The notes beneath the pieces were generated by a model that was given only the letters and a program-made list of their open reading frames with translations, was not told the origin of the DNA and did no database searches. 51,069 bases of DNA, from NCBI GenBank assembly GCA_964388435.1, contig CAYMAH010000029.1:1-51069 (forward strand), read 5' to 3'. The stretch is from Candidatus Micrarchaeota archaeon (lineage in GTDB: Archaea > Micrarchaeota > Micrarchaeia > Norongarragalinales > UBA8480). Numbering within the stretch: position 1 is the stretch's first letter; each line of letters opens with the position of its first letter. Shown piece after piece: positions 1,319-45,216 of the stretch. The position numbers were made by a program, and so were the translations under genes.

Positions 1319-1875
1319 AAAGAGAAACAACTGGAATTGTTCTGGACTATTTTCCGCATGGGAAGTCAAGCGAGTCCCTTGCAGAGCCAACAGCTCAGGT
1401 TTTAGGGGAGGATTACTTCACCTTGCTTGAAGTGGTAATCCCGGGAAGCGTTTCAATAAGCGACAAGATTCTTCTTGACAAATCAAATCCAGCGTGCAAA
1501 ATTGAAAGAATTAAGAAAAGAATAACCTTCCAAGAGCTAAGCGTTACCAGTCAAAATCAGCTTAAAAACTTTATAAAGGAAATAGTGGTTAAAAAGGAAA
1601 AAGATTTTGTACGGTTCATAAACACTGCCACTGCCATAAACATAAGAAGTCACTCTCTTGAATTACTACCCTCGATTGGAAAAAAGCACCTAAACCTTAT
1701 CTTGGACGAGCGGTCAAAAAAGCAGTTTGAGAGCTTTGAGGATATTAAAAAAAGAATTCCCCACCTGACGAGCGTTCCAGATATATTTGTCGAAGAGATA
1801 ATGGAGGAAATAAAGGGAAACGCTAAATACTATCTTTTTTCAAAGCCTCCATTCCAGAAATTCGAACGGTACTAA
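1315..1875 (+). CDS. DUF655-family putative RNA/nucleotide-binding protein
   Basis: GIVLDYFPHGK N-terminal OB-like motif and C-terminal HhH-like LLPSIGKKHLNLILDER. GTGA overlap with the rpoF stop. Third gene of the conserved archaeal operon. Confidence 0.72.
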   Translation: MKRETTGIVLDYFPHGKSSESLAEPTAQVLGEDYFTLLEVVIPGSVSISDKILLDKSNPACKIERIKKRITFQELSVTSQNQLKNFIKEIVVKKEKDFVRFINTATAINIRSHSLELLPSIGKKHLNLILDERSKKQFESFEDIKKRIPHLTSVPDIFVEEIMEEIKGNAKYYLFSKPPFQKFERY

Positions 1876-2492
1876 CAAGTAGTGCTGATGGGAGTTTCAG
1901 AGCAGTTAACGCTTAGAGCGAAATCCGAAGTGTTAACCTCAAAAAGATTTTCAGGAGTGCACACCGCGCCGTTACCTCCGTTGCTTAAATTCAGGTAAGC
2001 GGGAGTATAGTTTTGAATGAAAACATTCCAATTCTGATTTTCTGAAACGCTTTTTGAAAAACCGGAAAAGTTTGATGCCAAAGTATATGAAACCAAAACG
2101 TTGAAAGTGTAATTATTTGGAGAATTTGAAAGTGTATTAACGCAGGTTAGAACAGGCTGTGTTGAATTAAATCCTATCGCCGAATAGGATTGGTTTGAAA
2201 GAATAAGCGAAGAGTTTGAAAAATAGTTTACAAGCGTTGAATTCAAGTAAGAGCAGAAGTTTTGAGGCTGAACGGTGCAATTATAAGCTTCAAAAGCGCT
2301 GTCGGCAATGGCGTCGTGGATTGTTGAATTGAAAAAGCTTACCGCTTCACTTGCTTTCTCGGCAACCATGTCGCTTTCCATCGCCGCCACGCTGCTCTTC
2401 CTCTGGTTTCCAAGGCTGATCATAGCGTAGGCGAAGAATATTAAAATTATCGCTACTATTGCGATGATTGTTATTGAATAAAAACCTTTCAT
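1872..2492 (-). CDS. Pilin-like protein P6 (class III signal peptide), secreted glycoprotein candidate
   Basis: MKG|FYSITIIAIVAIILIFFAYAMI is a short leader plus hydrophobic helix. 12 N-x-S/T sequons, 6 Cys, C-terminal Cys. ATGA overlap with the upstream gene. Confidence 0.62.
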   Translation of the reverse strand: MKGFYSITIIAIVAIILIFFAYAMISLGNQRKSSVAAMESDMVAEKASEAVSFFNSTIHDAIADSAFEAYNCTVQPQNFCSYLNSTLVNYFSNSSLILSNQSYSAIGFNSTQPVLTCVNTLSNSPNNYTFNVLVSYTLASNFSGFSKSVSENQNWNVFIQNYTPAYLNLSNGGNGAVCTPENLFEVNTSDFALSVNCSETPISTTC

Positions 2493-2875
2493 GGCAGCGT
2501 CACCCAAGCATTATAAACACTATTGGTCTGATTCGCGCTTTGGCTTGAAAGACAAGAAGTATTAACGCCATAAACTAAATAACAACTTCCGCTGCAGTTG
2601 CAAATACCGGGATAAGCGTAAAAAACAGAATGGATTGAAAGGTTTGAAGAAAGTGGTGTTTCGGTCGATACATTAAAACCAGTTAAAGAATTGAAAATCG
2701 AGGGAGTTATCCCAGCTTGATATTGGTATTTCAACTGTAGATAATCATTGCCAAGAATCCTCATTGAATTAAAACTCTGAACATAGGAAGGCTGAAAGGA
2801 ATTGAACAGAGTGTAAAGGCTTAAAATTGCTATCAAACTTAAAAGCCCATCAACGGTGAATATTATTCCTTTCAT
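2489..2875 (-). CDS. Pilin-like protein P5 (class III signal peptide)
   Basis: MKG|IIFTVDGLLSLIAILSLYTLF. 5 sequons and 4 Cys (GICNCSGSC...SC). The ATG at 2875 is preferred over the GTG at 2884. Confidence 0.6.
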   Translation of the reverse strand: MKGIIFTVDGLLSLIAILSLYTLFNSFQPSYVQSFNSMRILGNDYLQLKYQYQAGITPSIFNSLTGFNVSTETPLSSNLSIHSVFYAYPGICNCSGSCYLVYGVNTSCLSSQSANQTNSVYNAWVTLP

Positions 2876-2877
2876 TT

Positions 2878-3237
2878 TCAGCACCCTTCAACCTCAAGAA
2901 AACAACCCGCGCCGCAGCTGACTGGCGAGGATAAATTAATATTGACATTCGTAAGCCTTTTTCCAACCAGCACCTGATTGCACTGCAAAGAAGTGCAATT
3001 GTTGAAAACAACCCCCCCAACACCGCTTTCAACCGCGCACCATTTTTGAGGAAGATAAGAAACGCTTGAATTTGAAACAATGGCATTTGCGATAACCTGC
3101 TCAGCGTTCGGCTGAAAAACCACTATCGAAGAATATTCTCTTTGAAGAAACTCCATGTAATGAGTGGCCACTCCAAGTGAAAAAGTGAAAAGCAGCGCTC
3201 CTATGAGAAGATCAAATGTAAGCCATTGCCCTTTCAT
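2878..3237 (-). CDS. Pilin-like protein P4 (class III signal peptide)
   Basis: MKG|QWLTFDLLIGALLFTFSLGV. 6 Cys, ends ...EVEGC. The internal ATG at 3237 is preferred because the upstream basic extension overlaps P3. Confidence 0.65.
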   Translation of the reverse strand: MKGQWLTFDLLIGALLFTFSLGVATHYMEFLQREYSSIVVFQPNAEQVIANAIVSNSSVSYLPQKWCAVESGVGGVVFNNCTSLQCNQVLVGKRLTNVNINLSSPVSCGAGCFLEVEGC

Positions 3238-3242
3238 TTTTT

Positions 3243-3650
3243 TCAACAACCTCCTAAAACCACATTTACGCTTCCGCTTGAACCTTCCAAACATACCGTT
3301 TCTCCGCATGCGAATGAACTGCTTGAAGGGTTAATGCCGCACAAGCTTTGAACCGAAACCGTCTCGTTGGTATCATTTGAAAACATTGTCAGCATACCGC
3401 TTGAAAAGCTTATCCCATACGAAATGAAGTTTCCATCTTTTAAAACGCATGGCATTGAATAATTTCCCTCCACCTGATTAATGCAATTCTCATTAATGAT
3501 ATTGGCAAAGCTTTGCAGCGCAACCTGCTGCTGAGTATAATAATTGGGCGTGTCAGAGTAAAAATAATTTATGAGATTAGTCATCCAGCCTATTATTATT
3601 ATTAAAATAAGAAAGACAAAATACAATTCAAGGCTTATCTGTGCTTTCAT
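3243..3650 (-). CDS. Pilin-like protein P3 (class III signal peptide)
   Basis: MKA|QISLELYFVFLILIIIIGW. 6 Cys, ends ...LGGC. ATGA overlap with the P2 stop. Confidence 0.7.
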   Translation of the reverse strand: MKAQISLELYFVFLILIIIIGWMTNLINYFYSDTPNYYTQQQVALQSFANIINENCINQVEGNYSMPCVLKDGNFISYGISFSSGMLTMFSNDTNETVSVQSLCGINPSSSSFACGETVCLEGSSGSVNVVLGGC

Positions 3651-4042
3651 TGAAATACCACACAATAATGATAATAACCTATGACACTACAATAACCAGA
3701 GATATTACTTGTATCAATATTCTGCCCGGTTATTGCAATATTTGTGGCGTTGAGTATTCCATCACTCACATCCTCCACCACGCCTGTGTTCGAGTTGGTG
3801 ATTTGAACTCCGTTTAAATAAAGGTGGGGATAAATAGTGAAGTTTGACCCGCTCAAATTGAAAGCCAGCGTGGTGAAAGCAAGTGATGAATTTCTTGCGG
3901 TGTAATTCAAGAGAAAGTTTCTGGAGGCGCTTAGGCTTATTGTTTCCTGAATATAATTGCCTACGTTTAATAATATGACCACTATAAAAGCAACTATTAT
4001 TGAAACTACAAGCAAGTACTCAATGGCAGTCTGCCCTTTCAA
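3647..4042 (-). CDS. Pilin-like protein P2 (class III signal peptide)
   Basis: A TTG start gives MKG|QTAIEYLLVVSIIVAFIVVILL, a canonical archaeal pilin KGQ-x-A-x-E motif. 6 sequons, 2 Cys. TTGA overlap with the P1 stop. Confidence 0.75.
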   Translation of the reverse strand: MKGQTAIEYLLVVSIIVAFIVVILLNVGNYIQETISLSASRNFLLNYTARNSSLAFTTLAFNLSGSNFTIYPHLYLNGVQITNSNTGVVEDVSDGILNATNIAITGQNIDTSNISGYCSVIGYYHYCVVFQ

Positions 4043-4476
4043 TTTAGTTGAGTACAATTGACAACCACCCCTCCATTATTACTTACAACGACGCTCAGCC
4101 ACCCCTGCTGGTTACACTCGAAATTGATTGTCGGCGGGAAAAACAATGTTTCTCCTGTCACGTTATAATTGCTATTGAAATTAGTGACATTGCTACTTTC
4201 AGTGCAATAAATGTTAGAGTTGGAGGTAGTTGGAATAAAGCAAATTGTATTTGGTGGCACGAAAACAGTGGTTGAAACATTCGCTCCAACCCCGCTCAAC
4301 CCGACAAAATTAATGTAAGAGCTCACCACGCCTATGGCGTTTCTGCCAAGACCGAGGTTGTCTAAAACCGTGTTTTGGCTGATCTGGCTTGCGGCAACCG
4401 AAAGCAGCGCTCCAGCAAGCGCGAAAATAAAAGCGGCTATTATAAAAAACTCAACACTTACCTGAGCGCGATCCAT
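4039..4476 (-). CDS. Pilin-like protein P1 (class III signal peptide)
   Basis: MDRA|QVSVEFFIIAAFIFALAGALL. 4 sequons, 4 Cys. Overlaps the peptidase stop by 19 nt. Confidence 0.7.
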   Translation of the reverse strand: MDRAQVSVEFFIIAAFIFALAGALLSVAASQISQNTVLDNLGLGRNAIGVVSSYINFVGLSGVGANVSTTVFVPPNTICFIPTTSNSNIYCTESSNVTNFNSNYNVTGETLFFPPTINFECNQQGWLSVVVSNNGGVVVNCTQLN

Positions 4477-5438
4477 AAAAACACCATGAACACAAACCCG
4501 ACGCCCAGAAAAGGCGCGAATGGGAACGATTCTTTAATAGAAATATGTTTAACTTTCATCCTTTTTAATTCTTTTATTTCGCTTTTTGTAATTCCTTCAG
4601 CGTTTGTTGTTATCAAGGGATTGGCGGCCTCTCCTTTTAAAGACTTGCTTATAACCTCGCTTAAACCCAGTTCTTTAACCACTCCGTTTTCAATAAAAAG
4701 ATTATTGGCGGGAATCATCCCCTCTTTTAAATCTTTAACTTCAACCTCTTTTCTTAAAATCTCATTAGAAGTTATTGAAAAAGCTTGTATCAGAACAATT
4801 GAAATAAAGCTTAAAACCAAGGCAATTGCCAGAAAAAAAAGTGTCGTCATGCCATAAAAGTAAAAACCCGCGGCCAGCAATATCAAGCCCAAATAAAAGG
4901 GTATTTTAATAATGAAAAAAACAACGAGCAATAAGATAAATGCGATTAAACTTATGTTTAAATTGATTTTTAAAAAAAGCAGTATGCTGGCCACGGCCGC
5001 TGATGATATGGATGAGCCGACCGCCATTTTAAAAGTTTCAAGCACGTTGAATCTTTTTCTTAAATCAATCAATTCTTTGAAGTGAATCACTATAAGAAGA
5101 GGAATTGAAAGAACGGCGGAAGCAAAGAAAAGATACAAAATCCCTTGCCAGCCGAATCCAGTCAGAAAAAACATCAAACCGTTTAAGCCTACAAAAAACT
5201 TAACGTCTCCCCCTCCCCAAACTCCGAGTTTATAAAGAATATACGCAAAAACAAAGCTTGCAACCGCGATTAAAATGAAATCAAAAGCCGAGGACTCGAC
5301 AACAGAAAGAATAAAACCGCCCATTACAACCGCGTAATTCAACAAATCCGGTATTACCCTTTCTTTCAAGTCAATGTAAACCGCTATTGAAGCGTAGACA
5401 ATTGAAATTAAAAGCAAAACATAAAATTGTAACATCAA
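4458..5438 (-). CDS. A24-family prepilin/preflagellin peptidase (PibD/EppA/FlaK-like) with inserted soluble domain
   Basis: Two Asp motifs: AVYID(23)LKERVIPD and WGGGD(78)VKFF. Polytopic membrane protein with terminal FPFAPFLGVG helix. An approx 85-aa hydrophilic insert precedes the last TM. Confidence 0.82.
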   Translation of the reverse strand: MMLQFYVLLLISIVYASIAVYIDLKERVIPDLLNYAVVMGGFILSVVESSAFDFILIAVASFVFAYILYKLGVWGGGDVKFFVGLNGLMFFLTGFGWQGILYLFFASAVLSIPLLIVIHFKELIDLRKRFNVLETFKMAVGSSISSAAVASILLFLKINLNISLIAFILLLVVFFIIKIPFYLGLILLAAGFYFYGMTTLFFLAIALVLSFISIVLIQAFSITSNEILRKEVEVKDLKEGMIPANNLFIENGVVKELGLSEVISKSLKGEAANPLITTNAEGITKSEIKELKRMKVKHISIKESFPFAPFLGVGFVFMVFLWIALR

Positions 5439-5467
5439 ACTAAATTAAAAGTGCAAAGGATAAAAAT

Positions 5468-5896
5468 TTATTGCTGTTTTTTATATCCCCTGATTCTTTC
5501 CTTTTCCCGGTTTTTTGAAACCTCCCTTCCAGTAAAGTTGCTAACAACCTGCTCTGCGAAAGCTTCAAGCCTGAAAAGCTCGTCAATTGAAGGTTTTTGA
5601 ATTCCTATTTTATGAAATAATTTCTGAGGGTGTCTCACGGATTTGAATGGTTTTAACTTCTTTTCCAGCTTGCCGCAGAACCTTTTAGACCCCACACAAA
5701 CTAACGCCGTCTTTCCATTCAATTTAAATTTTTGTTTGAACCTTATTTTTTGGGAGACGCAAGCGAAAATCAAATCGCCTGAAATCTCCTCATCAAGACT
5801 TTTCAATTCATAACTCTCCCCGGCGTTCAAAACTCCGGTGGCCACTATACTTGCAATATAACGCGAATCGTTGTTAAACCCGATAATTATCTTCAT
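5468..5896 (-). CDS. Hypothetical cytoplasmic protein (142 aa), no recognised family
   Basis: Long ORF co-directional between the hairpin array and the peptidase. MKIIIGFNND start and basic C-terminus. A flavodoxin-like alternation is only vaguely suggested. Confidence 0.5.
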   Translation of the reverse strand: MKIIIGFNNDSRYIASIVATGVLNAGESYELKSLDEEISGDLIFACVSQKIRFKQKFKLNGKTALVCVGSKRFCGKLEKKLKPFKSVRHPQKLFHKIGIQKPSIDELFRLEAFAEQVVSNFTGREVSKNREKERIRGYKKQQ

Positions 5897-5963
5897 CGTG
5901 TATATTCTAATGTGGGGAAAAATTGAAAAAGGTTAATGGTTTCTTTTTTTCCAATGCTTTTTT

Positions 5964-6257
5964 TTATTTTCCTAGAATTACGGGTGCGTCTGCGTCAAGC
6001 CTTTTCATTCTCTGCTCTGACAAGCCTCTCAAATAAGTGGCTACGGCGAAAGCTGGAATAAGCAAAATCGAACCTTGAATAAGCAAGTAAATGCCCGCGA
6101 ATATGAAAACAAAGCTTAAGCTGTCAATAAGCGTTTTCTCCTTTAAAATGTCCAAATGCTTGTTTAAATAGTCCCACCTGGTTGAAACGTCAAGAAAAGG
6201 CTCGGGCTTGTCAACTGTCATCGAAGTTGACATTAATTTTTGTTCCGCCATGCTCAC
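5964..6257 (-). CDS. Small two-TM hairpin membrane protein, paralog A of a 5-gene array
   Basis: TRWDYLNKHLD motif, then helices SLSFVFIFAGIYLLIQ / SILLIPAFAVATYL. GTGA overlap with B, or ATG at 6251. Confidence 0.6.
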   Translation of the reverse strand: MSMAEQKLMSTSMTVDKPEPFLDVSTRWDYLNKHLDILKEKTLIDSLSFVFIFAGIYLLIQGSILLIPAFAVATYLRGLSEQRMKRLDADAPVILGK

Positions 6258-6697
6258 TTCACCTCAATTATAGGATGTGTTTTCAAATCCTCCACTCCGA
6301 AGGCATTTCCAATGACCCTTTCACTCCAATAAACTCCCGTTATAAAAGCGAATACCAAAGCGATGTAAATGTTTATGAAATATGCTGCTGTTGTTAGAAT
6401 TAAGAATATAATAGAATAAAAATATGATTTGTAGGCCTCTCCTATGGTGGCGCTTTTAAAATCGCTTGCAAATTGATCGTTAAGAAAATCTCTTCTCTCG
6501 ACAATGTCCGCAAACCTTAGTTTTTTTCCGTCCCCCATGAGCTTTCCTTTTTTTGTTGCTTCTTGCTTTTCCTTCTCCGTCATTTTTTCAGGAAGCTCGT
6601 CAGAAGGAGATGAAAGCGGAAGAAACATGGCGGTGTAACTATCCATTTCAGCATTGCTTTCTTTTTTTATTTTAATATTCTTCAGCATAAAATTCAC
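6254..6697 (-). CDS. Small two-TM hairpin membrane protein, paralog B
   Basis: ERRDFLNDQFA motif, then YSIIFLILTTAAYFI / IYIALVFAFITGVYW. Longer acidic/lysine-rich N-terminus. GTGA overlap with C, or ATG at 6688. Confidence 0.6.
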   Translation of the reverse strand: MNFMLKNIKIKKESNAEMDSYTAMFLPLSSPSDELPEKMTEKEKQEATKKGKLMGDGKKLRFADIVERRDFLNDQFASDFKSATIGEAYKSYFYSIIFLILTTAAYFINIYIALVFAFITGVYWSERVIGNAFGVEDLKTHPIIEVK

Positions 6698-6954
6698 TTT
6701 ATATTTTCAATTAAAAAACCCGATCCAAAGTAAAAAGCGACTATCCCGGCAATTGGAATAAACAAGCTTGGCTGGTTTACCAAAACGTAAAACCCGCCTA
6801 AAATCAAAATCAAGTTTATCATAAAATCGGGAATAACCATGGTGTGCTCGTTCATCGCCTGATTGAAAGTGTACGTGTTTTCAACTGGCTTTGCTACTCC
6901 CAGCTTTTCAAGCAGCATCATCAGCTTCACTTCCCAACTTGTTTTTATAGCCAT
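6694..6954 (-). CDS. Small two-TM hairpin membrane protein, paralog C (motif degenerate)
   Basis: The hairpin GGFYVLVNQPSLFIPIAGIVAFYFGSG aligns with paralog A AGIYLLIQGSILLIPAFAVATYLRG. The N-terminal R-x-D-Y-L motif is not evident. Confidence 0.55.
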   Translation of the reverse strand: MAIKTSWEVKLMMLLEKLGVAKPVENTYTFNQAMNEHTMVIPDFMINLILILGGFYVLVNQPSLFIPIAGIVAFYFGSGFLIENIK

Positions 6955-6961
6955 AAAAAAA

Positions 6962-7291
6962 TCACTTTAACAAAGCGACAACCCTCGAATTTGATTTTAC
7001 TATCGCTCCATTCCAGAATCCAATCATCCAATATCTCCCGGCAAGCGCCGCGCTTATCAAAGAAACCACCGGAATGTAAGGAATGGTTATTATTGCAAAT
7101 GCGACGAATGTTATGGCTTTGGCTTTGGCGCTGTACTGATTTTTCCAAAGTCCTATAAAATCGTTTAAATAATCTCTTTTCTTGACTTTTTTTGTAAGGC
7201 TTAACTCCTTCTTGGATTTGAGCGTTAAAAGCGTGGTCTGAGGTAAAGGTTGAAACGACGTTAATTGTTGTTGCTCCATTCTCTCATTCAC
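6962..7291 (-). CDS. Small two-TM hairpin membrane protein, paralog D
   Basis: KKRDYLNDFIG motif, then AITFVAFAIITIPYI / VVSLISAALAGRYWMIGF. GTG start in GTGA overlap with E, or in-frame ATG at 7279. Confidence 0.6.
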   Translation of the reverse strand: MNERMEQQQLTSFQPLPQTTLLTLKSKKELSLTKKVKKRDYLNDFIGLWKNQYSAKAKAITFVAFAIITIPYIPVVSLISAALAGRYWMIGFWNGAIVKSNSRVVALLK

Positions 7292-7605
7292 CTTGTCACA
7301 ATCATGTTTTTATTTTTCATTATCACGTTAAGCATGGTGTTTTTCTTTATGTGTTCTCCGTATGCCTTTCCGGCAATCAAAGCGAATAACGCGCTTAGAA
7401 AAATGCTGTATTGAAATGAAAAAACTGCTATTATGAAAAAAACTATTGCCAAAGCCCTGTAGGTGTGCCATTCCCGCCATGTTTTTATTCCATCTTCAAG
7501 GAAATCCTTTCTTGTCTTCAACTCCATCACAGAGTGGTTATTGGTGTCTATTGGAAGAACGAATGGCGTTTCCATTCCTTGATAATATGGCTGTGCCGGA
7601 TCCAT
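7288..7605 (-). CDS. Small two-TM hairpin membrane protein, paralog E (first gene of array)
   Basis: TRKDFLEDGIK motif, then ALAIVFFIIAVFSF / IFLSALFALIAGKAYG. ATG start. Confidence 0.6.
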   Translation of the reverse strand: MDPAQPYYQGMETPFVLPIDTNNHSVMELKTRKDFLEDGIKTWREWHTYRALAIVFFIIAVFSFQYSIFLSALFALIAGKAYGEHIKKNTMLNVIMKNKNMIVTR

Positions 7606-7623
7606 GCCTAAATAAGAGCAAAA

Positions 7624-7637
7624 GTTATTTATAAACT
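7624..7637 (-). promoter_or_regulatory. TATA-like box upstream of the hairpin-array cluster
   Basis: Minus strand reads GTTTATAAATAA about 20-30 nt upstream of the ATG at 7605, with no SD in between. Compatible with a leaderless or short-leader transcript. Confidence 0.3.
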
Positions 7638-7811
7638 TGTCGGTGGTAACATTTAATTTAAAAGCTTGTCATCAAACCTTTTTTTTCTAAAATTTCAATT
7701 TTATATTGCCTTATGCATATCTTTTCTTTTAAAAACCATGTTTTTGTAAAACTTTTTCAGCAATACTTTTTTTATTGAATCAATATCAAACTAAAACAAG
7801 AGTGAATAGAA

Positions 7812-8208
7812 ATGGAAGAAATCATATCGGTTAAAAACATTTCAAAAAGCTTCCAAACCTTTGAAAACGAGGAAGGTTCGGTCAAAAGTCTTTTCAACAG
7901 AAAGCATTACCTGAAAAAGAGTTCGCGGTATTTTCACACATAATTTTAAGACCGGAAAGTATCTAAACTGGTTTTTCAACATGGTGAGTCACGCTTCTCA
8001 ATATCCCCTGCCTGTTTATGGAATTCTGGGCACTATCCTGCTTACAATTGCAATACCTGTTGGCTTGGCTTCATTCTACCCCGCGCAACCTATTTTTTCA
8101 AGAATAAGCCCATCCCGTTTTCCCGATATCTGAGTGTTTTACTTTCATACTTATTATAATAAAACAAGTTTTTGGCTTTTAAAGTCCTATTCAAGCGGCG
8201 GAGGATAA
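7812..8208 (+). pseudogene. Remnant of an ABC-2 type transporter: ATPase N-terminus fused by deletion to a frameshifted permease C-terminus
   Basis: MEEIISVKNISKSFQTFENEEGSVKSLF is a typical ABC ATPase start, stopping after 43 aa. An overlapping frame reads ...NWFFNMVSHASQYPLPVYGILGTILLTIAIPVGLASFYPAQ (ABC-2/DUF990-like permease tail). A third frame ends FWLLKSYSSGGG-stop, the family-typical C-terminus as I recall it. Confidence 0.6.
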
Positions 8209-8260
8209 AATTCAAACAAAGCGATAGGTTTAAAATTTTACACGAATCTAAATTTAGTCA

Positions 8261-8689
8261 ATGGTGGATACAGGCATTAAGGTAGGAGACTGCATGAAGA
8301 CAAAAGTCATAACAATAAACGCGGATTCAACAGCGGTTGAAGCCGCAAAGAAAATAAAAGAGTTTAATGTTGGCAGCCTGCTTGTGGAAAAAAACGGCGT
8401 TGTACAAGGAATAATAACCGAAAAGGATCTTGTAGTCAAAAGCCTTTCCGCAGGAGACTTGAACATAAAAGTAAATGATTTTATGAGCGCAAACCTCATT
8501 CAAATCGAGGATGATGCTGATTTGAGCGCGGCGGCGAAGATCATGGGCGAAAACAAAATCAAAAGACTTATTGTAACTCATGCGGGCAAGATAGTTGGAA
8601 TTATTTCCCAAAAGGACATAATATCTATTTCTCCTTCTTTATATGATTTGATCTCCCAGAATTGGAAGTCTGGATTCAAAACATTTTAA
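8261..8689 (+). CDS. CBS domain pair protein
   Basis: Two CBS repeats: VGDCMKTKVITINADSTAVEAAKKIKEFNVGSLLV...GIITEKDLV and VNDFMSANLIQIEDDADLSAAAKIMGENKIKRLIV...GIISQKDII. Confidence 0.85.
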   Translation: MVDTGIKVGDCMKTKVITINADSTAVEAAKKIKEFNVGSLLVEKNGVVQGIITEKDLVVKSLSAGDLNIKVNDFMSANLIQIEDDADLSAAAKIMGENKIKRLIVTHAGKIVGIISQKDIISISPSLYDLISQNWKSGFKTF

Positions 8690-8798
8690 AACAAGCATGC
8701 ATGGATGGCGCCCTTGATTAGGTGAAGGGGATTGTCAACAATGCGTGCGTAAAAAACTGTTTTGAGTTCTTTTTTTAAAAAAAAAGGTGAATTAAAAC

Positions 8799-10109
8799 AT
8801 GGGAAAAACTTACATTGACACCGTAAAATATCAAATAAAAGCGGATTTCGAAGTGGATGGAATCGTTGAAAAACCAGACATTGTCGGAGCAATATTCGGC
8901 CAAACCGAAGGCCTTCTAGGAGACGAGCTTGAATTGAGAGAGCTTCAGAAAAACGGAAGAATTGGAAGAATAGAAATAGACGCTCAAATCAGAAACGGAA
9001 AAACCGCTGGGTTAATAATAATTCCCTCAAGCCTGGACATGGTTGAAACAAGCATTTTAGGGGCCAGCGTTGAAGTGGTTGACCGAGTGGGGCCATACGA
9101 AGCCAAGATAACCGTTGAAAAAATAGAAGACTCCAGAAACATGAAAAGAAAACAGGTAATGGACAGGGCTAAAAACCTTCTCAAAACGCTTATTTCAAAC
9201 GAGATTCCCGAAACAAGAGAACTCACTGATTTATTAAGAGATCAGGTTAAGACAGCCGAACTGATTGAATACGGAGAGGAAAAACTCCCTGCAGGGCCCG
9301 AGATAGATTCAAGCGAGAGCATTATTTTTGTTGAGGGAAGAGCCGACGTTTTGAATCTTCTTAAAAACAATATACTTAACGCTATTGCAATAGGCGGTGC
9401 AAACGTTGGAAAGACCATAACAAGGCTTGGAAAGGAAAAAGAAGTCACGGCGTTTCTTGATGGTGATAGAGGCGGGGATTTGATAGTCAAAGAACTGGCC
9501 GCCGTAACCGATATAGATTATGTTGTAAAAGCGCCTGACGGAAAGGAAGTGGAAGAATTAACAAGAAAGGAAATAATACAAACCCTTAGAAAGAAAATAC
9601 CACTTCAGGAGTTTCTAGGCCTCATGACTGAAAAATCTGAAAGGAAAAGATTTCATGATTTTAGAGACGGCAGGGACAACCACGGTTTCAGGGACAGGAA
9701 CGAAAGAAGGTACGAAGAGAGAAGGCCCGAGGAAAAAAGACCCGACGTCATTGAAAAAAGAGTTGAACCCATTCAAAAGCCGGTTCAAATGCCAATCCAA
9801 CCGGTTCAACAGCCGGTTGAAAACCCAGAGGCAAAGCCGGAAATTTTAGCCAAACTCAAAAGCCTTGAAGGCAGTCTCAAGGCAAGAATATTGGATGAAA
9901 AGCTTGAAACAATAAAAGAAGTTCCAATAAGAGAAGTGATGCAGGCTATAACCGAATCTCAAAACGCAAAAGCGGTTATATTGGACGGAATAGTCACGCA
10001 GAGGCTGGTGGATCTTTCAGAGCAGAAAGGATTGAAATATATAGGCGGGGTTAGAAGCGGGACCATAACGAGAAAATCAACCGTTTCAATAATCCTGTCA
10101 TCGGAGTAA
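8799..10109 (+). CDS. dnaG: Archaeal DnaG primase (TOPRIM)
   Basis: N-terminus MGKTYIDTVKYQIKADFEVDGIVEKPDIVGAIFGQTEGLLG is the archaeal DnaG signature. TOPRIM motifs IIFVEGRADV...DGDRGGD. A-run plus GGTGA SD. Confidence 0.9.
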   Translation: MGKTYIDTVKYQIKADFEVDGIVEKPDIVGAIFGQTEGLLGDELELRELQKNGRIGRIEIDAQIRNGKTAGLIIIPSSLDMVETSILGASVEVVDRVGPYEAKITVEKIEDSRNMKRKQVMDRAKNLLKTLISNEIPETRELTDLLRDQVKTAELIEYGEEKLPAGPEIDSSESIIFVEGRADVLNLLKNNILNAIAIGGANVGKTITRLGKEKEVTAFLDGDRGGDLIVKELAAVTDIDYVVKAPDGKEVEELTRKEIIQTLRKKIPLQEFLGLMTEKSERKRFHDFRDGRDNHGFRDRNERRYEERRPEEKRPDVIEKRVEPIQKPVQMPIQPVQQPVENPEAKPEILAKLKSLEGSLKARILDEKLETIKEVPIREVMQAITESQNAKAVILDGIVTQRLVDLSEQKGLKYIGGVRSGTITRKSTVSIILSSE

Positions 10110-10120
10110 AACAAAAGCAG

Positions 10121-10150
10121 AGGCGTTGAAAGACGCCTTTCATTTTTTGC
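10121..10150 (+). terminator. Hairpin plus T-tract after dnaG
   Basis: AGGCGT-tgaaag-ACGCCT stem-loop followed by TTCATTTTTTGCTTTT. Confidence 0.4.
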
Positions 10151-10194
10151 TTTTAACAGCAAAGATTTTAAAACAAAAAGGTAAAAATAAAAGC

Positions 10195-10485
10195 ATGAAA
10201 AAATCAAAAATTGATGAAATGAAAAAAGTGGACGAGTTAGTGCGGGAAACTGGAAGGGAAGACAAAGGCGAGGACGAGGTTATGATCTGCCCTAAATGCG
10301 GAAGCACGAAAATTTCAATAAGGTCAATTGATATTCCCGGGTTTGCTCCGGAAGTATATGTTTGCGGCAACTGCGGGTTCAAAATGGAAAGCCCAATAGA
10401 GGCTGAACCGCTCAAAGTGGTGCAGTCTGAGGAAAAAACCGCGGAAAAAAACGAAAAGAAAAGTTTAAAAAAGAAAAAGAAGTAG
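10195..10485 (+). CDS. Zinc-ribbon protein with lysine-rich tail
   Basis: CPKCGS...x21...CGNCGF four-Cys ribbon. The ATG at 10195 is preferred over the upstream track start. C-terminal KKSLKKKKK. Confidence 0.6.
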   Translation: MKKSKIDEMKKVDELVRETGREDKGEDEVMICPKCGSTKISIRSIDIPGFAPEVYVCGNCGFKMESPIEAEPLKVVQSEEKTAEKNEKKSLKKKKK

Positions 10486-10520
10486 ATTTTAGCATTAATT
10501 TTTAAAAGAGGGATGATAAA

Positions 10521-10778
10521 ATGGTAAAGTTTGCAATTGCAAAGCAATTGGCTGGGAAGAGAATCATAACAACGGATGGGGAGGAACTTGGAAGGGTGGT
10601 CGACTTGTATGTTAACGAGTTGACTGGAAAATTGGAAAGCGTTCTTATTGAACCCAACCCCGATTCAAGCATAGCTTCAAAAGCAAGTGGAGGGCTGGTG
10701 ACAATTTCATACGGCTCTGTTCTGGACGTTAAAGACGTCATGGTCGTGGACAAGAGAGGAATAACCGCGGCAGCCTGA
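10521..10778 (+). CDS. PRC-barrel domain protein
   Basis: LAGKRIITTDGEELGRVVDLYVNELTGKLESVLIEP is a typical PRC-barrel pattern. Confidence 0.75.
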   Translation: MVKFAIAKQLAGKRIITTDGEELGRVVDLYVNELTGKLESVLIEPNPDSSIASKASGGLVTISYGSVLDVKDVMVVDKRGITAAA

Positions 10779-10782
10779 AAAT

Positions 10783-11748
10783 CTAAACTTCAACAGTCAC
10801 GTATCTTCCCTTAGTAACATCTTTTACTGTTTTATTTTTAACCGCGTCTTCGGGGTTTTCTAGAATGGATTCTATGCCCGCATAGTTTTTGTAAACCGCT
10901 TCGCCTTTCTCTCTATTCTCTTTTGCCTTTAACTTAAAATCTTCAAGCGCTTTTTTTTGCTGTTCAAGCTTGAACTTCAATTTTGATAATTTTTCGTTTA
11001 TTTTAACCTGGTTTGAATAATACTCGTCAAGAGCCTCGTTAAGAGTTGGAAAAGTCTTAAAATCCAACTTAAGTTTTTCAAGAGGTATTGAAGAGAAAAA
11101 CTTGGGAACCTTGTTTTCATAATAAACCCTTGGCTCTTTAATGCTTAAAAGCCCGTTCAACGATTCAATAAGCCTTTTCTTATCGGCGTCTTCTATCTTT
11201 CCGCTTATCCCCGCCCTAGCGCACGCCTCTTCGATGTAAAAAACCGAGAGATTTACAATCTTTGAAACCGCGGGGATAATCTCTCCCGTGACTGACTCAA
11301 AATCAGATTCTTTCAACTCAAAAGGATGTTTTTTAGCTTTAAGAGGAGTATAATCGTTGTTTTTGCTTATTCTTTCAGACTCTTTCAAAAAAGCTTTTAT
11401 TTTTCCATTATCGAGCAGAATGATGTTTCCAGTGGCGAATTCAAAAATCAAAACAGAATTTGTAAACGTTAAACGGCAAACCCTGTCGAAATTCAACTGC
11501 TCTATTTCAATAAGCTTTTGATTTGAAAGCTCGTCTCTCAAAACCTTGACAAAACCCCTCGGTTCTTCGACTTCAAACTCGTAATCTGAAAGGTATATTT
11601 TGTTTTTAGCTTCCACTATCAAATTTTTACCTCTAAACTTGAACTTGAAAATCCCGTTATTGCAATAAACATTGCCCAGAAATGTATTTTCAAGCACTTT
11701 CAACTCCGGGATTAAAAAGAACAAATCCAGGTTGCCAATCTGCTGCAT
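10783..11748 (-). CDS. NFACT-N (FbpA/RqcH-like) protein, short form lacking NFACT-R
   Basis: N-terminal LKVLENTFLGNVY...FVKVLRDELSNQKLIEIEQLNFDRVCRLTF...NIILLD matches the NFACT-N pattern. Coiled-coil tail. Only 321 aa. Confidence 0.65.
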   Translation of the reverse strand: MQQIGNLDLFFLIPELKVLENTFLGNVYCNNGIFKFKFRGKNLIVEAKNKIYLSDYEFEVEEPRGFVKVLRDELSNQKLIEIEQLNFDRVCRLTFTNSVLIFEFATGNIILLDNGKIKAFLKESERISKNNDYTPLKAKKHPFELKESDFESVTGEIIPAVSKIVNLSVFYIEEACARAGISGKIEDADKKRLIESLNGLLSIKEPRVYYENKVPKFFSSIPLEKLKLDFKTFPTLNEALDEYYSNQVKINEKLSKLKFKLEQQKKALEDFKLKAKENREKGEAVYKNYAGIESILENPEDAVKNKTVKDVTKGRYVTVEV

Positions 11749-27236: not shown

Positions 27237-27293
27237 TGTTAATATTTAAGGGTTTAAAACATTTAAACCTTGTGTTAAAAAAAAAAGAAAAAA

Positions 27294-27324
27294 AAGTAAG
27301 CTGATTAAAAAAAAAAGCTTACTT
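27294..27324 (-). terminator. Perfect 9-bp stem-loop flanked by A/T runs, downstream of the pilin genes
   Basis: AAGTAAGCT-13 nt A-rich loop-AGCTTACTT. It sits 9 nt beyond the stop of the last pilin gene (27333), between the convergently ending pilus operon and the lonB start. Confidence 0.5.
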
Positions 27325-27332
27325 AACTTAAT

Positions 27333-27551
27333 TCAGTGTACTGCCGTGCAGTTTACAATACCATTTGAGCCGCTATAATTGCAAGCCGAAGCATTTACGT
27401 TGTTCATTATATCATTACTTGTTGTGTTAACATTTGTGGAAGCACCCGATAATATGCTGGATTTCAAGATAACAATAACCAAAACCACTATAAGCAAAAT
27501 ACCTGCCAAAAGCAGTATATACTCAAAAGCTCCCTGCCCTTTGTTGTTCAT
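27333..27551 (-). CDS. Small type IV pilin (class III signal peptide), 72 aa
   Basis: MNNKG|QGAFEYILLLAGILLIVVLVIVIL. 2 Cys. GGTGAT SD upstream. Confidence 0.8.
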   Translation of the reverse strand: MNNKGQGAFEYILLLAGILLIVVLVIVILKSSILSGASTNVNTTSNDIMNNVNASACNYSGSNGIVNCTAVH

Positions 27552-27641
27552 TAAAATATCACCTTTAAAATAAATTAAAACTATATCTACGATATTCTTT
27601 TTAAACTTTTTGTTTAAACTTTTTTTCAGTTTTAAAGCATT

Positions 27642-27857
27642 TCAAGACGTAACGCAAGAGCTTATCTGAGTGTAATTAGAACTTGAAGTCAAATTGCAAT
27701 TTGAAACATTCTGATAAGTGTTTGAAGAAGTGTTGATATTCTGGTTTGCCGGAGTCAAAACATTTGTCTTGACCACCACCATCACAATGACTAAAATAAA
27801 TAAAACACCCGCGATTAACAAAATGTATTCAAGGGAACCCTGCGCTTTTTCCTTCAT
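27642..27857 (-). CDS. Small type IV pilin (class III signal peptide), 71 aa
   Basis: MKEKA|QGSLEYILLIAGVLFILVIVMVVV. 2 Cys. Confidence 0.8.
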   Translation of the reverse strand: MKEKAQGSLEYILLIAGVLFILVIVMVVVKTNVLTPANQNINTSSNTYQNVSNCNLTSSSNYTQISSCVTS

Positions 27858-27864
27858 TTTTTTT

Positions 27865-27978
27865 TCACTTCAAAACGCTTGTTTTAATAAAATAAGCCAC
27901 GACCGTAACGAAAACAACCGCCGCCGCTATCAACAAAAGATATTCTATAGCAGTCTGACCTTTTTTATTTTTTATCAT
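27865..27978 (-). CDS. Mini-pilin, 37 aa (signal peptide plus single helix); not in ORF track
   Basis: Own translation: MIKNKKG|QTAIEYLLLIAAAVVFVTVVAYFIKTSVLK-stop. ATGA overlap with the stop of the platform gene at 27975. Shares KGQTAIEYLL with P2 at 3647..4042. Confidence 0.65.
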   Translation of the reverse strand: MIKNKKGQTAIEYLLLIAAAVVFVTVVAYFIKTSVLK

Positions 27979-28982
27979 ATGGTACCACCTATTATCATTG
28001 AACTGGCAAGCTTGCCCACAGTGAATATAATCGTAACCAAAAGCATTGTGACAGGAGCGTAGATAATGTATTTAAACATCACTCCATCTCTTATCAAGCC
28101 TATTGCCACAAGCGTTATAATCGACTCTAAAACCAGGAAAGTAAGCAAAAGCTGTTGCATGGCTATATTCCTCCAAACATAAACCGGGTTTTGTTGGTTC
28201 AAACTGTTGAAACCAGCAATTAAAAACAATGCCAAAGTTGAATCGCTTGAAGCGAGCTGCTGAAGCGTTACATTGGCAGTTGAACTGGCAGTGCCTGAGG
28301 CCGCCATGCCACTGCTCATAAAGGTTATTATGGTTATAACAAAACCAAAAATAAAAGGAGCTAAAATCAAGCCTGAAATCACCAAAAACATTACGTGCAT
28401 CATGCTTCTCGAAGCTCTCTCTCTTTTAATCCTCTGAACATCCCTGGCATCCTCTGCAATTGCGTTTAAAACATCGGCAAGACCAGCCCCAGCTTTTCTA
28501 GCATCGATAACCACGCTCACCACTCTTTTAAACAATTCAGAACCTGAACCGCTTCCCAAGCCAAGCATCACATCGTCAAAACTCTTTCCCTCCCTCAAAG
28601 CCTTAAGCCCGTTTTTAAGATCGGTGCTTAAAGGCCCGTAATCAGCATTTGAAACCTCCTCCAAAGAAGTTTCAGTCGTCCCCCCTGCCTTTAACACAAG
28701 ACTCATATGCTTCAAAGCATCAGGAAGATTAGCCTCGATGCTTTCAATCCTGGAATTTCTTATCGAAATGGGAATTATTATCGCAAGGCTTGCAATTGCA
28801 ATAAAAGCAATAAAACCTATAAGAAAACCGTTGATTTGAAGATTTGGAATAAAATATTCAACAAGAAAATAACTCACTCCGCTAAGAACCATCGCCAAAA
28901 AAAACATGACTATAATGAAAACCTCAAAGCTGAGATTGATTCCAGTCCCAGCGTAAAAATTCTTTAAATCCTTATAATTCAT
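27975..28982 (-). CDS. Pilus platform membrane protein, single T2SSF domain (TadC/FlaJ-half-like)
   Basis: LPDALKHMSLVLKAGGTTETSLEEV...LREGKSFDDVM...IDARKAGAGLADVL is a GspF/T2SSF pattern, flanked by TM helices. Confidence 0.78.
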   Translation of the reverse strand: MNYKDLKNFYAGTGINLSFEVFIIVMFFLAMVLSGVSYFLVEYFIPNLQINGFLIGFIAFIAIASLAIIIPISIRNSRIESIEANLPDALKHMSLVLKAGGTTETSLEEVSNADYGPLSTDLKNGLKALREGKSFDDVMLGLGSGSGSELFKRVVSVVIDARKAGAGLADVLNAIAEDARDVQRIKRERASRSMMHVMFLVISGLILAPFIFGFVITIITFMSSGMAASGTASSTANVTLQQLASSDSTLALFLIAGFNSLNQQNPVYVWRNIAMQQLLLTFLVLESIITLVAIGLIRDGVMFKYIIYAPVTMLLVTIIFTVGKLASSMIIGGTI

Positions 28983-30118
28983 GTTGTAGGTTCTAACCTC
29001 CTAATCAAATAAAGAATCATTATCGTCATGAACAAAATGCCGATAAACAAGCTTAGCACAAGCACGAAGGCAATCCCCCCTCCGAAAACAGGAAGCTGAG
29101 CTACTGCGCTTAAAATGGTTAACATGACTGGCCCGACAACCGCGATCATGATATAACCTATGCTTATAAGATTTAAAACTTCTGTAAAATCTCTTATCTT
29201 CATCCTGCTTTCAAAAGAAACGTCATCCGCTATCGTGGTTATAATTTCAGCAAGATTCCCTCCTGTCCTCAAGGCCCTGATAATCTGAACCAAAGCTTTC
29301 TTCAAACCTTTTGATTTGGTTCTGATGCTCAACTTCAAAACCGCTTCCTCGGTGCTCATCCCTCCTTCCATGTCCACTAAAACTCTTTTAAACTCGTCGC
29401 TTAAAACACCATAATTGCTCTGAGCAATAGAGTTAAGAGAATTGCTAAAACTAACTCCCGCTTTAAGCTGAGTGGATAACTGCCTTAAAGCGAAAGGCAA
29501 TTCCTTGTCGATATCCTTAGCTCTCTCTCCTGCTTTCATTCCAGGATAGTAAATCATCAACAAGGAAGTGAGAATAAAACCAAGAACAGCAACTATTATA
29601 CTCAAAGTAACAGAATAGCCAATTCCCACCACGCTTAAAACAGGATTCAGGAAAATGCTCAAACTGCCAATTAAAATAAGAAGAAGAAACGCCACTATTA
29701 TTGAAATAACCGAAGATAATGCCATATACCCTTCGGGAGAAACGTTAATATTTGCGCTTTCAAGATTGTTCTTCAAACTGTTGGTTATTGGAAAAACGTT
29801 CATTAAATTTTGAATCAAAGAAAGCGGTTTTTCAAAAACAGTGTAAAAATTACCAAGAGCGTTGGAACTCTTATGAACCGAAACCTGAACCTCTCTCTTG
29901 ACCTCTTCAGTAGGAGCCATGACCAACCCCTTTCCTTCAACAGTTGTTTTAAGAGATTCCAGTTTCTTGCTGATATTTGTTTCCTTGGGAGCGTTCTTCT
30001 GCCTGAGCCTGTCGACAATCTTTTCAAGCTCCTCCTGCCTTCTTCTTTTTGACTCCGCGTCCTCCTCCTTTTCAACGTTCTCTTTTAAACTTGTAAGTTT
30101 TTTTTCAACCATTTTCAA
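28979..30118 (-). CDS. Pilus platform membrane protein, single T2SSF domain (TadB/FlaJ-half-like) with charged N-terminal extension
   Basis: LPFALRQLSTQLKAGVSFSNSLNSIA...MEGGMSTEEAV...IRALRTGGNLAEII. About 100-aa K/E-rich N-terminus. 4-nt overlaps on both sides. Confidence 0.78.
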   Translation of the reverse strand: MKMVEKKLTSLKENVEKEEDAESKRRRQEELEKIVDRLRQKNAPKETNISKKLESLKTTVEGKGLVMAPTEEVKREVQVSVHKSSNALGNFYTVFEKPLSLIQNLMNVFPITNSLKNNLESANINVSPEGYMALSSVISIIVAFLLLILIGSLSIFLNPVLSVVGIGYSVTLSIIVAVLGFILTSLLMIYYPGMKAGERAKDIDKELPFALRQLSTQLKAGVSFSNSLNSIAQSNYGVLSDEFKRVLVDMEGGMSTEEAVLKLSIRTKSKGLKKALVQIIRALRTGGNLAEIITTIADDVSFESRMKIRDFTEVLNLISIGYIMIAVVGPVMLTILSAVAQLPVFGGGIAFVLVLSLFIGILFMTIMILYLIRRLEPTT

Positions 30119-31662
30119 TCTCCGCGCTTAGTCCTCAAAATGTAATTCTGAGTTATAAAACAAACATCCTTCAACCTTCTCACCCCAGCCTCCTGCATCT
30201 TCCTTAAAATCTCCGCCCTGTTTGAAATCTCCTGATTCACAGCGCTCCTTGAAAGGCCGGTGTATCTCATAAGCGTTTGAACATAAAAAGAATTTAATTT
30301 GGTAGATTGAATCTCATCAACCGCGGGGTCCCAGGTATATAAAACCCTTAAGTCAGGAAGCTCTCCCTCCTTCTCTGAAGGGATAATTTCAGCTATTTCA
30401 GTAATTCTTCTTATTAAACCCTTCCTACGGTCATTAATCCTCTGCTGCATCACAATAAAATTCAAAGAATCAAGCATTATAACCGGAACTGAAATAGGAG
30501 GGCTGAACAAACGAGTCAAAGTCTCCTTCGCTGAATTGGCGTGAACCGTTCCCATACACCCGTCATGACCGGTATTCATTGCTGAAAATAACGTAAAACC
30601 TTCCTCCCCTCTTATTTCCCCCACAATAATCCTATCAGGCCTCATTCTCAAACTGTTCTTTACAAGATCATTCATCGTAATCTCTCCAACCCCCTCCATT
30701 CCAGGGGGCCTTGTCTCAAACCGAATCCAATGGCTCAAGGGAAGATTCAACTCCGCGGTATCCTCCACAGTCAAAACCCTTTCATTAGTAGGAATAAAAG
30801 AAGACAAAATGTTCAAAGTGCTTGTCTTACCCGAAGCAGTACCTCCTGAAATCAAAATATTAGCGGGTTTAGCGCCAAAACCGTCAGTAGCAAGCCAAAG
30901 AAAAGCGGCTATCTCAAGATTCATCGTTCTCAAATTCAAAAGATCTATTATAGTCAACGGGTCCTCCCTGAACTTTCTAAGAGTCAAAGTACTCCCATTA
31001 ACGCTTACAGGAGGGATGGTGGCGTTAACCCTTGTTCCATCGGGAAGCCTCGCGTCAAGCAACGGATTTTGAATGTCAATCCTCCTCCCGATATTCCTAG
31101 CAATCTTATCAATCAAATCCTTGATATCCTTGTCATCATAATAAACAACATTAGTAGTCATCATGTCATACTTTCTGTGAAAAACATAAACCGGCTTTCC
31201 AGGCCCTATAATCATGATTTCTTCAAGATTATCATCCTTGATTAAATCATCAATCAAACCATAGCCAACCATCTCCTTCAAAACAACATCAGTGTAAAAC
31301 TCCTTGGAATTAGGCGGCACTTTCAACTCAGGAGTGGAGTTGATGATATCCAAAATCTTATTCCTGTAAGCAAACCTCCTCTGCTGAGAAGTTTTATAAG
31401 TTTCGGTTTCAGTTTCAATAACCTTGGTGGCAATATCAATCAAAGAAGTGATTAAAATCTTCTCCTCCCCCAAATACCTTGGAACCGGAATCTCATAATG
31501 AAGCAAATCCTGCCCCGGAATCTTGTAAATCTTAACGTCCCCATAAGAAGCAACAAGGACATTATCCTCTTTCTTCTTCTCCTCCCCTATAATCTTTCTA
31601 ACCTCCTCTCCCTCCCCTTTTTCTGATTTTGCTTGAGCTATCAAATCTTCAAGTTTAGGCAT
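30115..31662 (-). CDS. Type IV pilus/archaellum-type secretion ATPase (FlaI/TadA/VirB11 family)
   Basis: Walker A GGTASGKTSTLN, Asp box LTVEDTAEL, Walker B RPDRIIVGEIRGEE, His box GHDGCMGTVHANS. Confidence 0.88.
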   Translation of the reverse strand: MPKLEDLIAQAKSEKGEGEEVRKIIGEEKKKEDNVLVASYGDVKIYKIPGQDLLHYEIPVPRYLGEEKILITSLIDIATKVIETETETYKTSQQRRFAYRNKILDIINSTPELKVPPNSKEFYTDVVLKEMVGYGLIDDLIKDDNLEEIMIIGPGKPVYVFHRKYDMMTTNVVYYDDKDIKDLIDKIARNIGRRIDIQNPLLDARLPDGTRVNATIPPVSVNGSTLTLRKFREDPLTIIDLLNLRTMNLEIAAFLWLATDGFGAKPANILISGGTASGKTSTLNILSSFIPTNERVLTVEDTAELNLPLSHWIRFETRPPGMEGVGEITMNDLVKNSLRMRPDRIIVGEIRGEEGFTLFSAMNTGHDGCMGTVHANSAKETLTRLFSPPISVPVIMLDSLNFIVMQQRINDRRKGLIRRITEIAEIIPSEKEGELPDLRVLYTWDPAVDEIQSTKLNSFYVQTLMRYTGLSRSAVNQEISNRAEILRKMQEAGVRRLKDVCFITQNYILRTKRGD

Positions 31663-45036: not shown

Positions 45037-45216
45037 CTAACCGTAATTGCTTAGATTGTTTGTAATATTTATAATATAACTAGACGTGTTGCTCGACTGG
45101 TTCATGACAGGAGCCATCACCACGTTCTTAACGAGAATCGCCACTATTATTATAAACAGTATAGCCGCTGAAATAAGCAGTATGTACTCCAAACTCGCCT
45201 GAGCCTTGCTTTCCAT
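45037..45216 (-). CDS. Orphan small type IV pilin, 59 aa; not in ORF track
   Basis: Own translation: MESKA|QASLEYILLISAAILFIIIVAILVKNVVMAPVMNQSSNTSSYIINITNNLSNYG-stop. Same KAQ-x-SLEYILL motif as the pilin at 27642..27857. Confidence 0.65.
   Translation of the reverse strand: MESKAQASLEYILLISAAILFIIIVAILVKNVVMAPVMNQSSNTSSYIINITNNLSNYG

Follow-up and report, generated by a model that had tools for sequence, protein, structure and literature searches.

A probable Epd-like type IV pilus operon with a two-gene platform and a platform-coupled mini-prepilin in Micrarchaeota

What kind of type IV filament machine is encoded by a compact minus-strand operon of an uncultured Micrarchaeota archaeon, and is the division of its membrane platform between two genes genuine? 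The operon spans positions 27333-31662 of a 51,069-nucleotide stretch of DNA (hereafter the window), which is contig 29 (CAYMAH010000029.1) of the 881-kb, 68-contig and 94% complete genome of a Candidatus Micrarchaeota archaeon of the order Norongarragalinales (GCA_964388435.1). A first-pass annotation, made from the letters alone, had described it as a Tad/Epd-like pilus machine. Domain content, ATPase phylogeny, the lack of archaellum genes and the conserved split of the platform all agree with that description, and we consider it very probable that this locus forms the core operon for an Epd-like type IV pilus (ATPase clade 1, type IV filament (T4F) system 1) in this DPANN phylum, an archaeal sister of the bacterial Tad/Flp system. 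The layout as such is already published as the Epd-like/clade 1/system 1 class (Makarova 2016; Denise 2019; PLoS Genet 2026), and the clade that unites Epd-like systems with Tad is defined by two platform genes with a single T2SSF domain each and by short pilins (Denise et al. 2019, PMC6668835). Pilins of the class are about 70 aa long, lack a globular domain, carry a class III signal peptide and are often stand-alone and multi-copy. The traits found here are those of the class: the ATPase falls in the clade 1 + Tad group, each of the two platform genes has a single T2SSF domain, and the pilins are short and bear class III signals.

Six successive open reading frames (ORFs) on the minus strand make up the operon and encode 515, 379, 335, 37, 71 and 72 amino acids (aa), and their coordinates, strand and lengths match those first annotated. 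The first encodes an EpdL/CpaF-like assembly ATPase of the T2SSE family (30115-31662, 515 aa; Pfam T2SSE, 160 bits). It is followed by two platform proteins, P1 (28979-30118; 379 aa when read from a TTG codon, 377 aa from an ATG at 30112) and P2 (27975-28982; 335 aa), in each of which Pfam detects exactly one T2SSF domain, at residues 210-336 and 90-214, respectively. The three small ORFs that complete the operon all score above the cut-off of the Pfam family Class_IIIsignal. These are a mini-prepilin of 37 aa (27865-27978; MIKNKKG/QTAIEY, the slash marking the cleavage site; 33.7 bits), a prepilin of 71 aa (27642-27857; KA/QGSLEY, with Q+1 and E+5; 32.3 bits) and a prepilin of 72 aa (27333-27551; KG/QGAFEYILLLAGILLIVVL; 32.9 bits), so that the earlier characterization of the pilins as Flp-sized is confirmed.

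The best match of the ATPase among solved structures is CpaF of Caulobacter (256 bits), followed by afGspE (240 bits) and FlaI (210 bits), and it is 55-69% identical to NCBI entries named "CpaF family protein [Candidatus Micrarchaeota archaeon]," the nearest loci being those of Micrarchaeota and Norongarragalinales metagenome-assembled genomes (MAGs). Outside DPANN, its nearest relatives are found in Thermococcus (52% identity), Methanobacterium (46-53%), Hydrothermarchaeota and Poseidoniales. The two Methanobacterium genomes that we searched yielded one true T2SSE ATPase only, which matches the report that the sole secretion ATPase of Methanobacteria belongs to clade 1, the type of the Methanococcus maripaludis Epd system (Makarova et al. 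2016, PMC4858521). We placed the ATPase in a 40-row maximum-likelihood tree (LG+C20), in which FlaI, afGspE and CpaF were represented by fragments from the PDB and UpsE by a Metallosphaera sequence identified via its UpsF neighbor, together with two unlabeled Sulfolobales paralogues. A branch with 100/100 support divides this tree in two. FlaI (three sequences from Sulfolobales and one from Hydrothermarchaeota), Metallosphaera UpsE, afGspE-like sequences and two more types of Sulfolobales paralogue fall on one side, while the other holds the studied clade with Thermococcus, Methanobacterium, Hydrothermarchaeota, marine group II (MGII), the bacterial Tad ATPases and the two other ATPases of the same genome. 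The ATPase part of the phylogeny proposed in the first-pass annotation thus bears out the Epd/Tad-like placement, and not the placement with archaellum FlaI that the annotation had named as a refutation. Within the clade 1 + Tad side, the branching order is best read as a polytomy, since neither a grouping of the studied clade with Tad (approximately unbiased (AU) test, p = 0.20) nor one with Thermococcus and Methanobacterium (p = 0.43) is rejected.

The same tree bears on two other origins of the locus. In the first, the operon would be what is left of an archaellum motor, that is, FlaI with a FlaJ-like platform. The JGI annotation of close homologues as "flagellar protein FlaI" points this way, as does the NCBIfam FlaI model, which gives the ATPase its highest raw score; that score, 326 bits, nevertheless falls far under the cut-off of 550 bits. 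Moreover, the ATPase is separated from FlaI by the 100/100 branch, and a tree in which the studied clade is forced together with FlaI is 91 log-likelihood units worse and is rejected (AU p = 3e-17). No archaellin (PF01917) was found in the 94% complete genome, and the platform is split, not a two-domain FlaJ. We therefore give a remnant archaellum motor practically no probability. The second origin is recent horizontal transfer of a bacterial Tad locus, in line with the NCBI name "CpaF family." CpaF is indeed the closest solved structure, the order ATPase-P1-P2 is that of tadA-tadB-tadC, and the mini-prepilin weakly matches DUF4244 and Flp_Fap (22 bits against a cut-off of 32.2). However, the 11 bacterial CpaF sequences form a clade of their own (100/100), with the Micrarchaeota group outside it, and the ATPase is less similar to them (39-44% identity) than to archaeal clade 1 ATPases (46-53%). 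The pilins exceed the Pfam cut-off for the archaeal class III signal and stay below that for Flp, the secretin RcpA (PF00263) has no match in the genome in a search that did not extend to TadZ and TadD-G, and, within an archaeal order, the locus is conserved vertically. A transferred Tad locus is, in our view, a very improbable source of an operon that we read as Epd-like.

The platform raised the question of whether two genes are really present. P1 and P2 overlap by four nucleotides (ATGA, 28979-28982) in different frames, as a -1 frameshift would give, and the pair might therefore be a single FlaJ/PilC-type gene broken at this point by a frameshift or an assembly error. We searched for T2SSF domains in 30 related genomes, which cover 23 genera and 11 families of the same order. 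In most of them, the matches come mostly as pairs spaced by about 800 bp, each match in its own open frame of about 290-430 aa; a clearly fused two-domain frame was seen only once (562 aa). All eight of the opened relatives' loci that reach past P1 encode the ATPase, a P1 orthologue (354-384 aa) and a P2 orthologue (305-381 aa), and a ninth, on a 4.4-kb contig, has the ATPase and the P1 orthologue before the contig ends. With the gene order kept in the relatives that we opened and paired frames present in the majority of the 30 genomes, the feature is far beyond chance. A second locus of the same genome, on contig 53, likewise combines an ATPase with a split platform. Paired single-domain frames also occur in one Thermococcus and one Hydrothermarchaeota genome, and two Methanobacterium genomes have two single-domain frames each, on separate contigs.

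The ends of the two proteins tell the same story. The P1 orthologues, including those of Methanobacterium, share a C-terminal end at an R[LM]EP motif, and the P2 orthologues have a conserved N terminus (Y-x-x-L-x-x-YYAATGF) and a transmembrane (TM) hairpin of their own, from which it follows that neither P1 nor P2 is a truncation product. In addition, the P2 frame is open for just six codons 5' of its ATG, and a GGAGGT motif lies 14 nucleotides upstream of this start. On this comparative evidence, we regard a frameshift artefact at the junction as excluded for practical purposes, and the idea of one broken gene as scarcely credible. The platform is thus encoded by two single-domain genes, as in TadB/TadC, in agreement with the first-pass annotation, which had also implied that such a split is unusual. 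In this it went too far: the two-gene platform is a published defining trait of the Epd-like/clade 1/system 1 class (PMC6668835, PMC13705601), and we found it in all relatives examined.

P1 consists of a cytoplasmic N-terminal extension (residues 1 to about 140), a TM hairpin, the T2SSF domain and C-terminal TM helices, while P2 has a TM hairpin, its T2SSF domain and C-terminal TM helices. P1, the first gene after the ATPase, occupies the slot of tadB in bacterial tad operons, and P2, the second, that of tadC. Among solved structures, P1 matches the PilC cytoplasmic domain 2WHN; a PDB sequence search with P2, like one with the candidate peptidase described below, returned nothing useful. When compared with the UpsF model, P1 aligns with the N-terminal half (positions 35-245 of 484) and P2 with the C-terminal half (265-470 of 484), as would be expected if a two-domain gene had undergone fission, whereas the FlaJ model does not discriminate between the two. 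Gene fission has been put forward to explain the two-gene platforms of TadB/TadC and Epd-like systems, and TadC is stated to align with the N-terminal half (Denise et al. 2019, PMC6668835). We built hidden Markov models (HMMs) from the Micrarchaeota P1 and P2 families and ran them on archaeal and bacterial loci. In Hydrothermarchaeota and MGII, they clearly pick out genes of both types, and in Methanobacterium the P1 model clearly picks out the P1-type gene beside the ATPase. The first gene of many bacterial tad loci leans weakly toward the P1 model and the second toward the P2 model, by differences of a few bits that are mixed in Firmicutes and Chloroflexi. This bacterial signal is too weak to match P1 and P2 one to one with TadB and TadC as orthologues.

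The N-terminal extension of P1 had been singled out as K/E-rich, and it is, with 38% K+E in residues 1-65. It is no peculiarity of this gene, however: a cytoplasmic region of about 140 residues precedes the first TM hairpin in the Micrarchaeota P1 orthologues, and a comparable one of about 120 residues in those of Methanobacterium. The stretch just N-terminal to the first TM helix is conserved, and a motif E-x-I-[IV]-x-[KR]-L-[KR] recurs; we speculate that the extension may help to dock the ATPase.

The short pilins can all be read with a cleavage site of the type [KR][GA], Q at position +1 and E (or D) at +5. This holds for the three operon products and for a fourth short pilin, a stand-alone prepilin of 59 aa (45037-45216, minus strand; KA/QASLEY) that scores 32.7 bits with our pilin HMM and 23.0 bits (E = 7e-5) with Class_IIIsignal, just under the cut-off, and that corresponds to the further pilin announced at 45 kb. 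In Methanococcus, EppA substrates typically have Q at +1. The 72-aa pilin is the leading candidate for the major pilin; its type, GQGAFEY[IV]LLLAG[IV]LLIVVL, is multi-copy in relatives, where it carries 30-60 extra Cys-rich residues.

Comparison shows that the 37-aa ORF is real. Its ATG overlaps the stop codon of P2, to which it is translationally coupled, and at least eight genomes of the order have an orthologue of 35-42 aa directly 3' of their P2 gene, the consensus being [KR][GA]QT-x-[IL]EY-LL-[IV]A...YFIKT-x-V. An HMM of this family yields full-length matches of 45-78 bits within the order; in other orders of the class, it matches the generic signal-peptide part only. Flp_Fap matches just two of seven orthologues at all. 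The predicted mature form, about 30 aa long and Flp-like, is essentially one TM helix that starts at G/QTAIEY. This order-wide, platform-coupled mini-pilin of about 30 mature residues is the sole mildly new point beyond published descriptions. We also entertain, as an unlikely though conceivable reading, that the mini-pilin is no ordinary subunit but the smallest known type IV pilin, acting either as a platform-bound primer or piston for the larger pilins or as the sole subunit of an ultra-thin filament. If this were true, the mini-pilin and the tadA-tadB-tadC-like gene order together would mean that no living system resembles the archaeal forerunner of the bacterial Tad/Flp pilus more closely than the DPANN version does.

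From the way in which Epd and Tad systems work, an assembly pathway can be predicted for the Epd-like pilus. An A24 prepilin peptidase, encoded elsewhere, would cut off the short leader of each prepilin. P1 and P2 would jointly form the membrane platform, as a heterodimer by analogy with the family, in place of a single two-domain FlaJ/PilC protein, and a hexameric ATPase would dock on their cytoplasmic T2SSF domains. The ATPase would then power the extraction of pilin subunits from the membrane and their addition to a thin filament, composed mostly of subunits of about 60 residues that have no globular head. In this host-dependent archaeon, with its 0.88-Mb genome and no archaellum, the operon probably encodes the chief appendage of the cell surface, which makes it a reasonable candidate for host attachment. 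Its role is likely to be attachment to surfaces or to a host cell, possibly with DNA capture in addition.

The weight of these two functions could be reversed, the machine being a real pilus whose chief job is DNA uptake or exchange, like that of the Epd pilus in Methanococcus transformation, rather than adhesion. Such a job would suit the host dependence of DPANN cells, and pilus-borne DNA exchange has been proposed for the Micrarchaeota strain Mia14 (PMC5498576). In the DNA uptake of methanogens, however, Epd pili work with a TctA-like partner, and we found no gene of this family in the 94% complete genome; none flanks the operon, which is bordered by lonB downstream and by pth2 and a methyltransferase gene upstream. 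DNA uptake as the chief job is accordingly, to our mind, quite unlikely, and attachment by an Epd-like pilus is the role that we favor.

Several points weigh against this interpretation of the locus as an Epd-like attachment pilus. The role in adhesion is one that we infer from the family, and a role in DNA uptake would have to do without its known companion. No FlaH/KaiC-like or MinD-like accessory ATPase is part of the operon. Linked FlaH/KaiC-like or MinD/FleN-like ATPases are common, not universal, in the Epd-like class; KaiC-family genes are absent from contig 29 and present on contigs 53, 60 and 46, in a survey that included no MinD-like search. The tree was built without M. maripaludis EpdL, for which Thermococcus and Methanobacterium served as clade 1 proxies, and EpdJ and EpdK are likewise unplaced; AapE and halobacterial PilB also lie outside it. 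Finally, three A24 peptidases compete as processor of the operon pilins.

The first-pass annotation had assigned to the operon a cognate peptidase 22 kb away. The gene is there: a candidate prepilin peptidase of 326 aa (4458-5438, minus strand) with Peptidase_A24 (39 bits) and Arc_PepC (35 bits) domains, about 9-10 hydrophobic segments as judged by eye and both catalytic Asp motifs (IDLKERVIPD and GGGD). With two further A24 peptidases in the genome, the label "cognate" is not established, and the enzyme is a candidate for the processing of the operon pilins. The Epd-like class is expected to have a dedicated prepilin peptidase of the EppA type, with about nine TM segments, of which this enzyme would be a putative counterpart. 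Six overlapping ORFs of 131-211 aa (1872-4476, minus strand) adjoin this gene as candidate minor pilins. They exist as first annotated, and at least four of the six can be read by eye with a class-III-like start, that is, with a [KR][GA] cleavage site, Q+1 and E (or D) +5, but none of them has a Pfam match at E <= 0.05 and the pilin HMM picks up the N terminus of only one. Nor is the system confined to three loci, as had been proposed, for across the whole genome the pilin-signal HMM finds twelve matches over six contigs.

Scattering of this kind is typical of DPANN T4F genes, and system 1 is known to occur in Nanobdellati (PLoS Genet 2026, PMC13705601). Among the closest known systems is the Epd pilus of M. 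maripaludis, which is required for natural transformation and whose genes are spread over separate loci, with epdJ-epdK-epdL at one, eppA and the minor pilins at another and the major pilin at a third (PMC10133366). Our system resembles it in having a single clade 1/Tad-group ATPase, a platform encoded by two genes that have one T2SSF domain apiece, pilins of about 70 aa with Q+1/E+5 and no globular head, and, away from the core, a candidate peptidase and minor-pilin cluster as well as stand-alone pilins. It differs in its ATPase-P1-P2 order with pilins inside the same operon, in the lack of an adjacent FlaH/KaiC-like or MinD-like ATPase, in the additional platform-coupled mini-pilin, and in its host, a DPANN archaeon with a 0.88-Mb genome. 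With the bacterial Tad/Flp pilus (type IVc; CpaF/TadA, TadB, TadC and Flp), it shares a collinear tadA-tadB-tadC order, the split platform, very short pilins with a motif of the type G/xTAIEY, and an ATPase whose best solved-structure relative is CpaF. The distinctions are those that argue against transfer, namely the position of the ATPase outside the bacterial CpaF clade, the missing secretin match and the archaeal class III signal of the pilins, together with a peptidase of archaeal type with an Arc_PepC domain. Within the same phylum, Mia14 has been described as having a T4P locus of the "Methanococci/Methanothermobacteria/Thermococci group" and a second system, with no archaellum (Golyshina et al. 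2017, PMC5498576). By that description, the arrangement is like the one found here, with a clade-1-type locus on contig 29 and a second system on contig 53, except that our genome has three A24 peptidases, as opposed to the one reported for Mia14, and an extra orphan ATPase on contig 40. Where a DPANN genome combines tiny pilins with a platform of two genes, the set thus amounts to a standard Epd-like/system 1 pilus, and the locus leaves current understanding unchanged, while the mini-pilin and the Tad-like gene order provide small, concrete handles on the origin of the bacterial Tad pilus from an archaeal system.

Some details of the operon deserve mention. The first three junctions had been listed as 4-nucleotide overlaps. 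The sequence reads as ATGA at P1/P2 and again between P2 and the 37-aa pilin (27975-27978), but a four-nucleotide overlap of the ATPase and P1 genes requires that P1 begin with the TTG at 30118; with the ATG at 30112, two codons on, they are separated by a 2-nucleotide spacer. The start of P1 (30110-30118) is ambiguous in this respect, and the starts of its orthologues fall near the ATG. The 72-aa pilin is preceded by a 90-nucleotide AT-rich spacer with a GGTGA ribosome-binding motif and may have its own promoter as well. Downstream of it, as had been noted, lies a perfect 9-bp hairpin, with the stem AAGUAAGCU/AGCUUACUU at 27294-27324, followed by T8-C-T10 (the whole element covers 27277-27324 on the minus strand). 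Its folding energy is -10.4 kcal/mol (z = -2.0), a stability equaled by 7 of 200 shuffled sequences. Oligo-T tracts act as archaeal terminators, and the hairpin with its T-run is the likely transcript end of the operon.

The two other ATPases of the genome have features of their own. The ATPase on contig 53 (678 aa; 5878-7914, plus strand) contains a mini-intein (about 165 aa; Pfam Intein_splicing at residues 294-456), which is inserted in the conserved motif IED/T-x-EL and ends in VIVHN/T, the slashes marking the insertion point; one database homologue of the operon's ATPase also shows PF14890. This second locus (4784-11537) further encodes, upstream, a K/E-rich coiled-coil protein of 365 aa with a weak winged-helix match and, downstream, a 180-aa KaiC-like fragment (DUF7504) and a full KaiC/FlaH-like ATPase of 267 aa, both of which are absent from the operon on contig 29. 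A third ATPase of the CpaF/FlaI family, on contig 40 (462 aa; 3603-4991, plus strand), has no platform gene nearby and pairs in the tree with the ATPase of another uncultured archaeon; it could be a putative spare or retraction motor. About 0.8 kb from it lies a 44-aa pilin paralogue (2637-2771, minus strand), whose N terminus is almost identical to that of the 72-aa pilin. Variants of the clade 1 layout were also seen in other archaea. In a Hydrothermarchaeota MAG, the ATPase gene is a frame of 1188 aa with two complete T2SSE units in tandem, followed by P1- and P2-type genes. Poseidoniales/MGII have a very compact version that begins with P1 (about 197 aa), continues with P2 (about 250 aa) and ends with the ATPase (about 412 aa), and in which both platform proteins are much shorter than those of Micrarchaeota.

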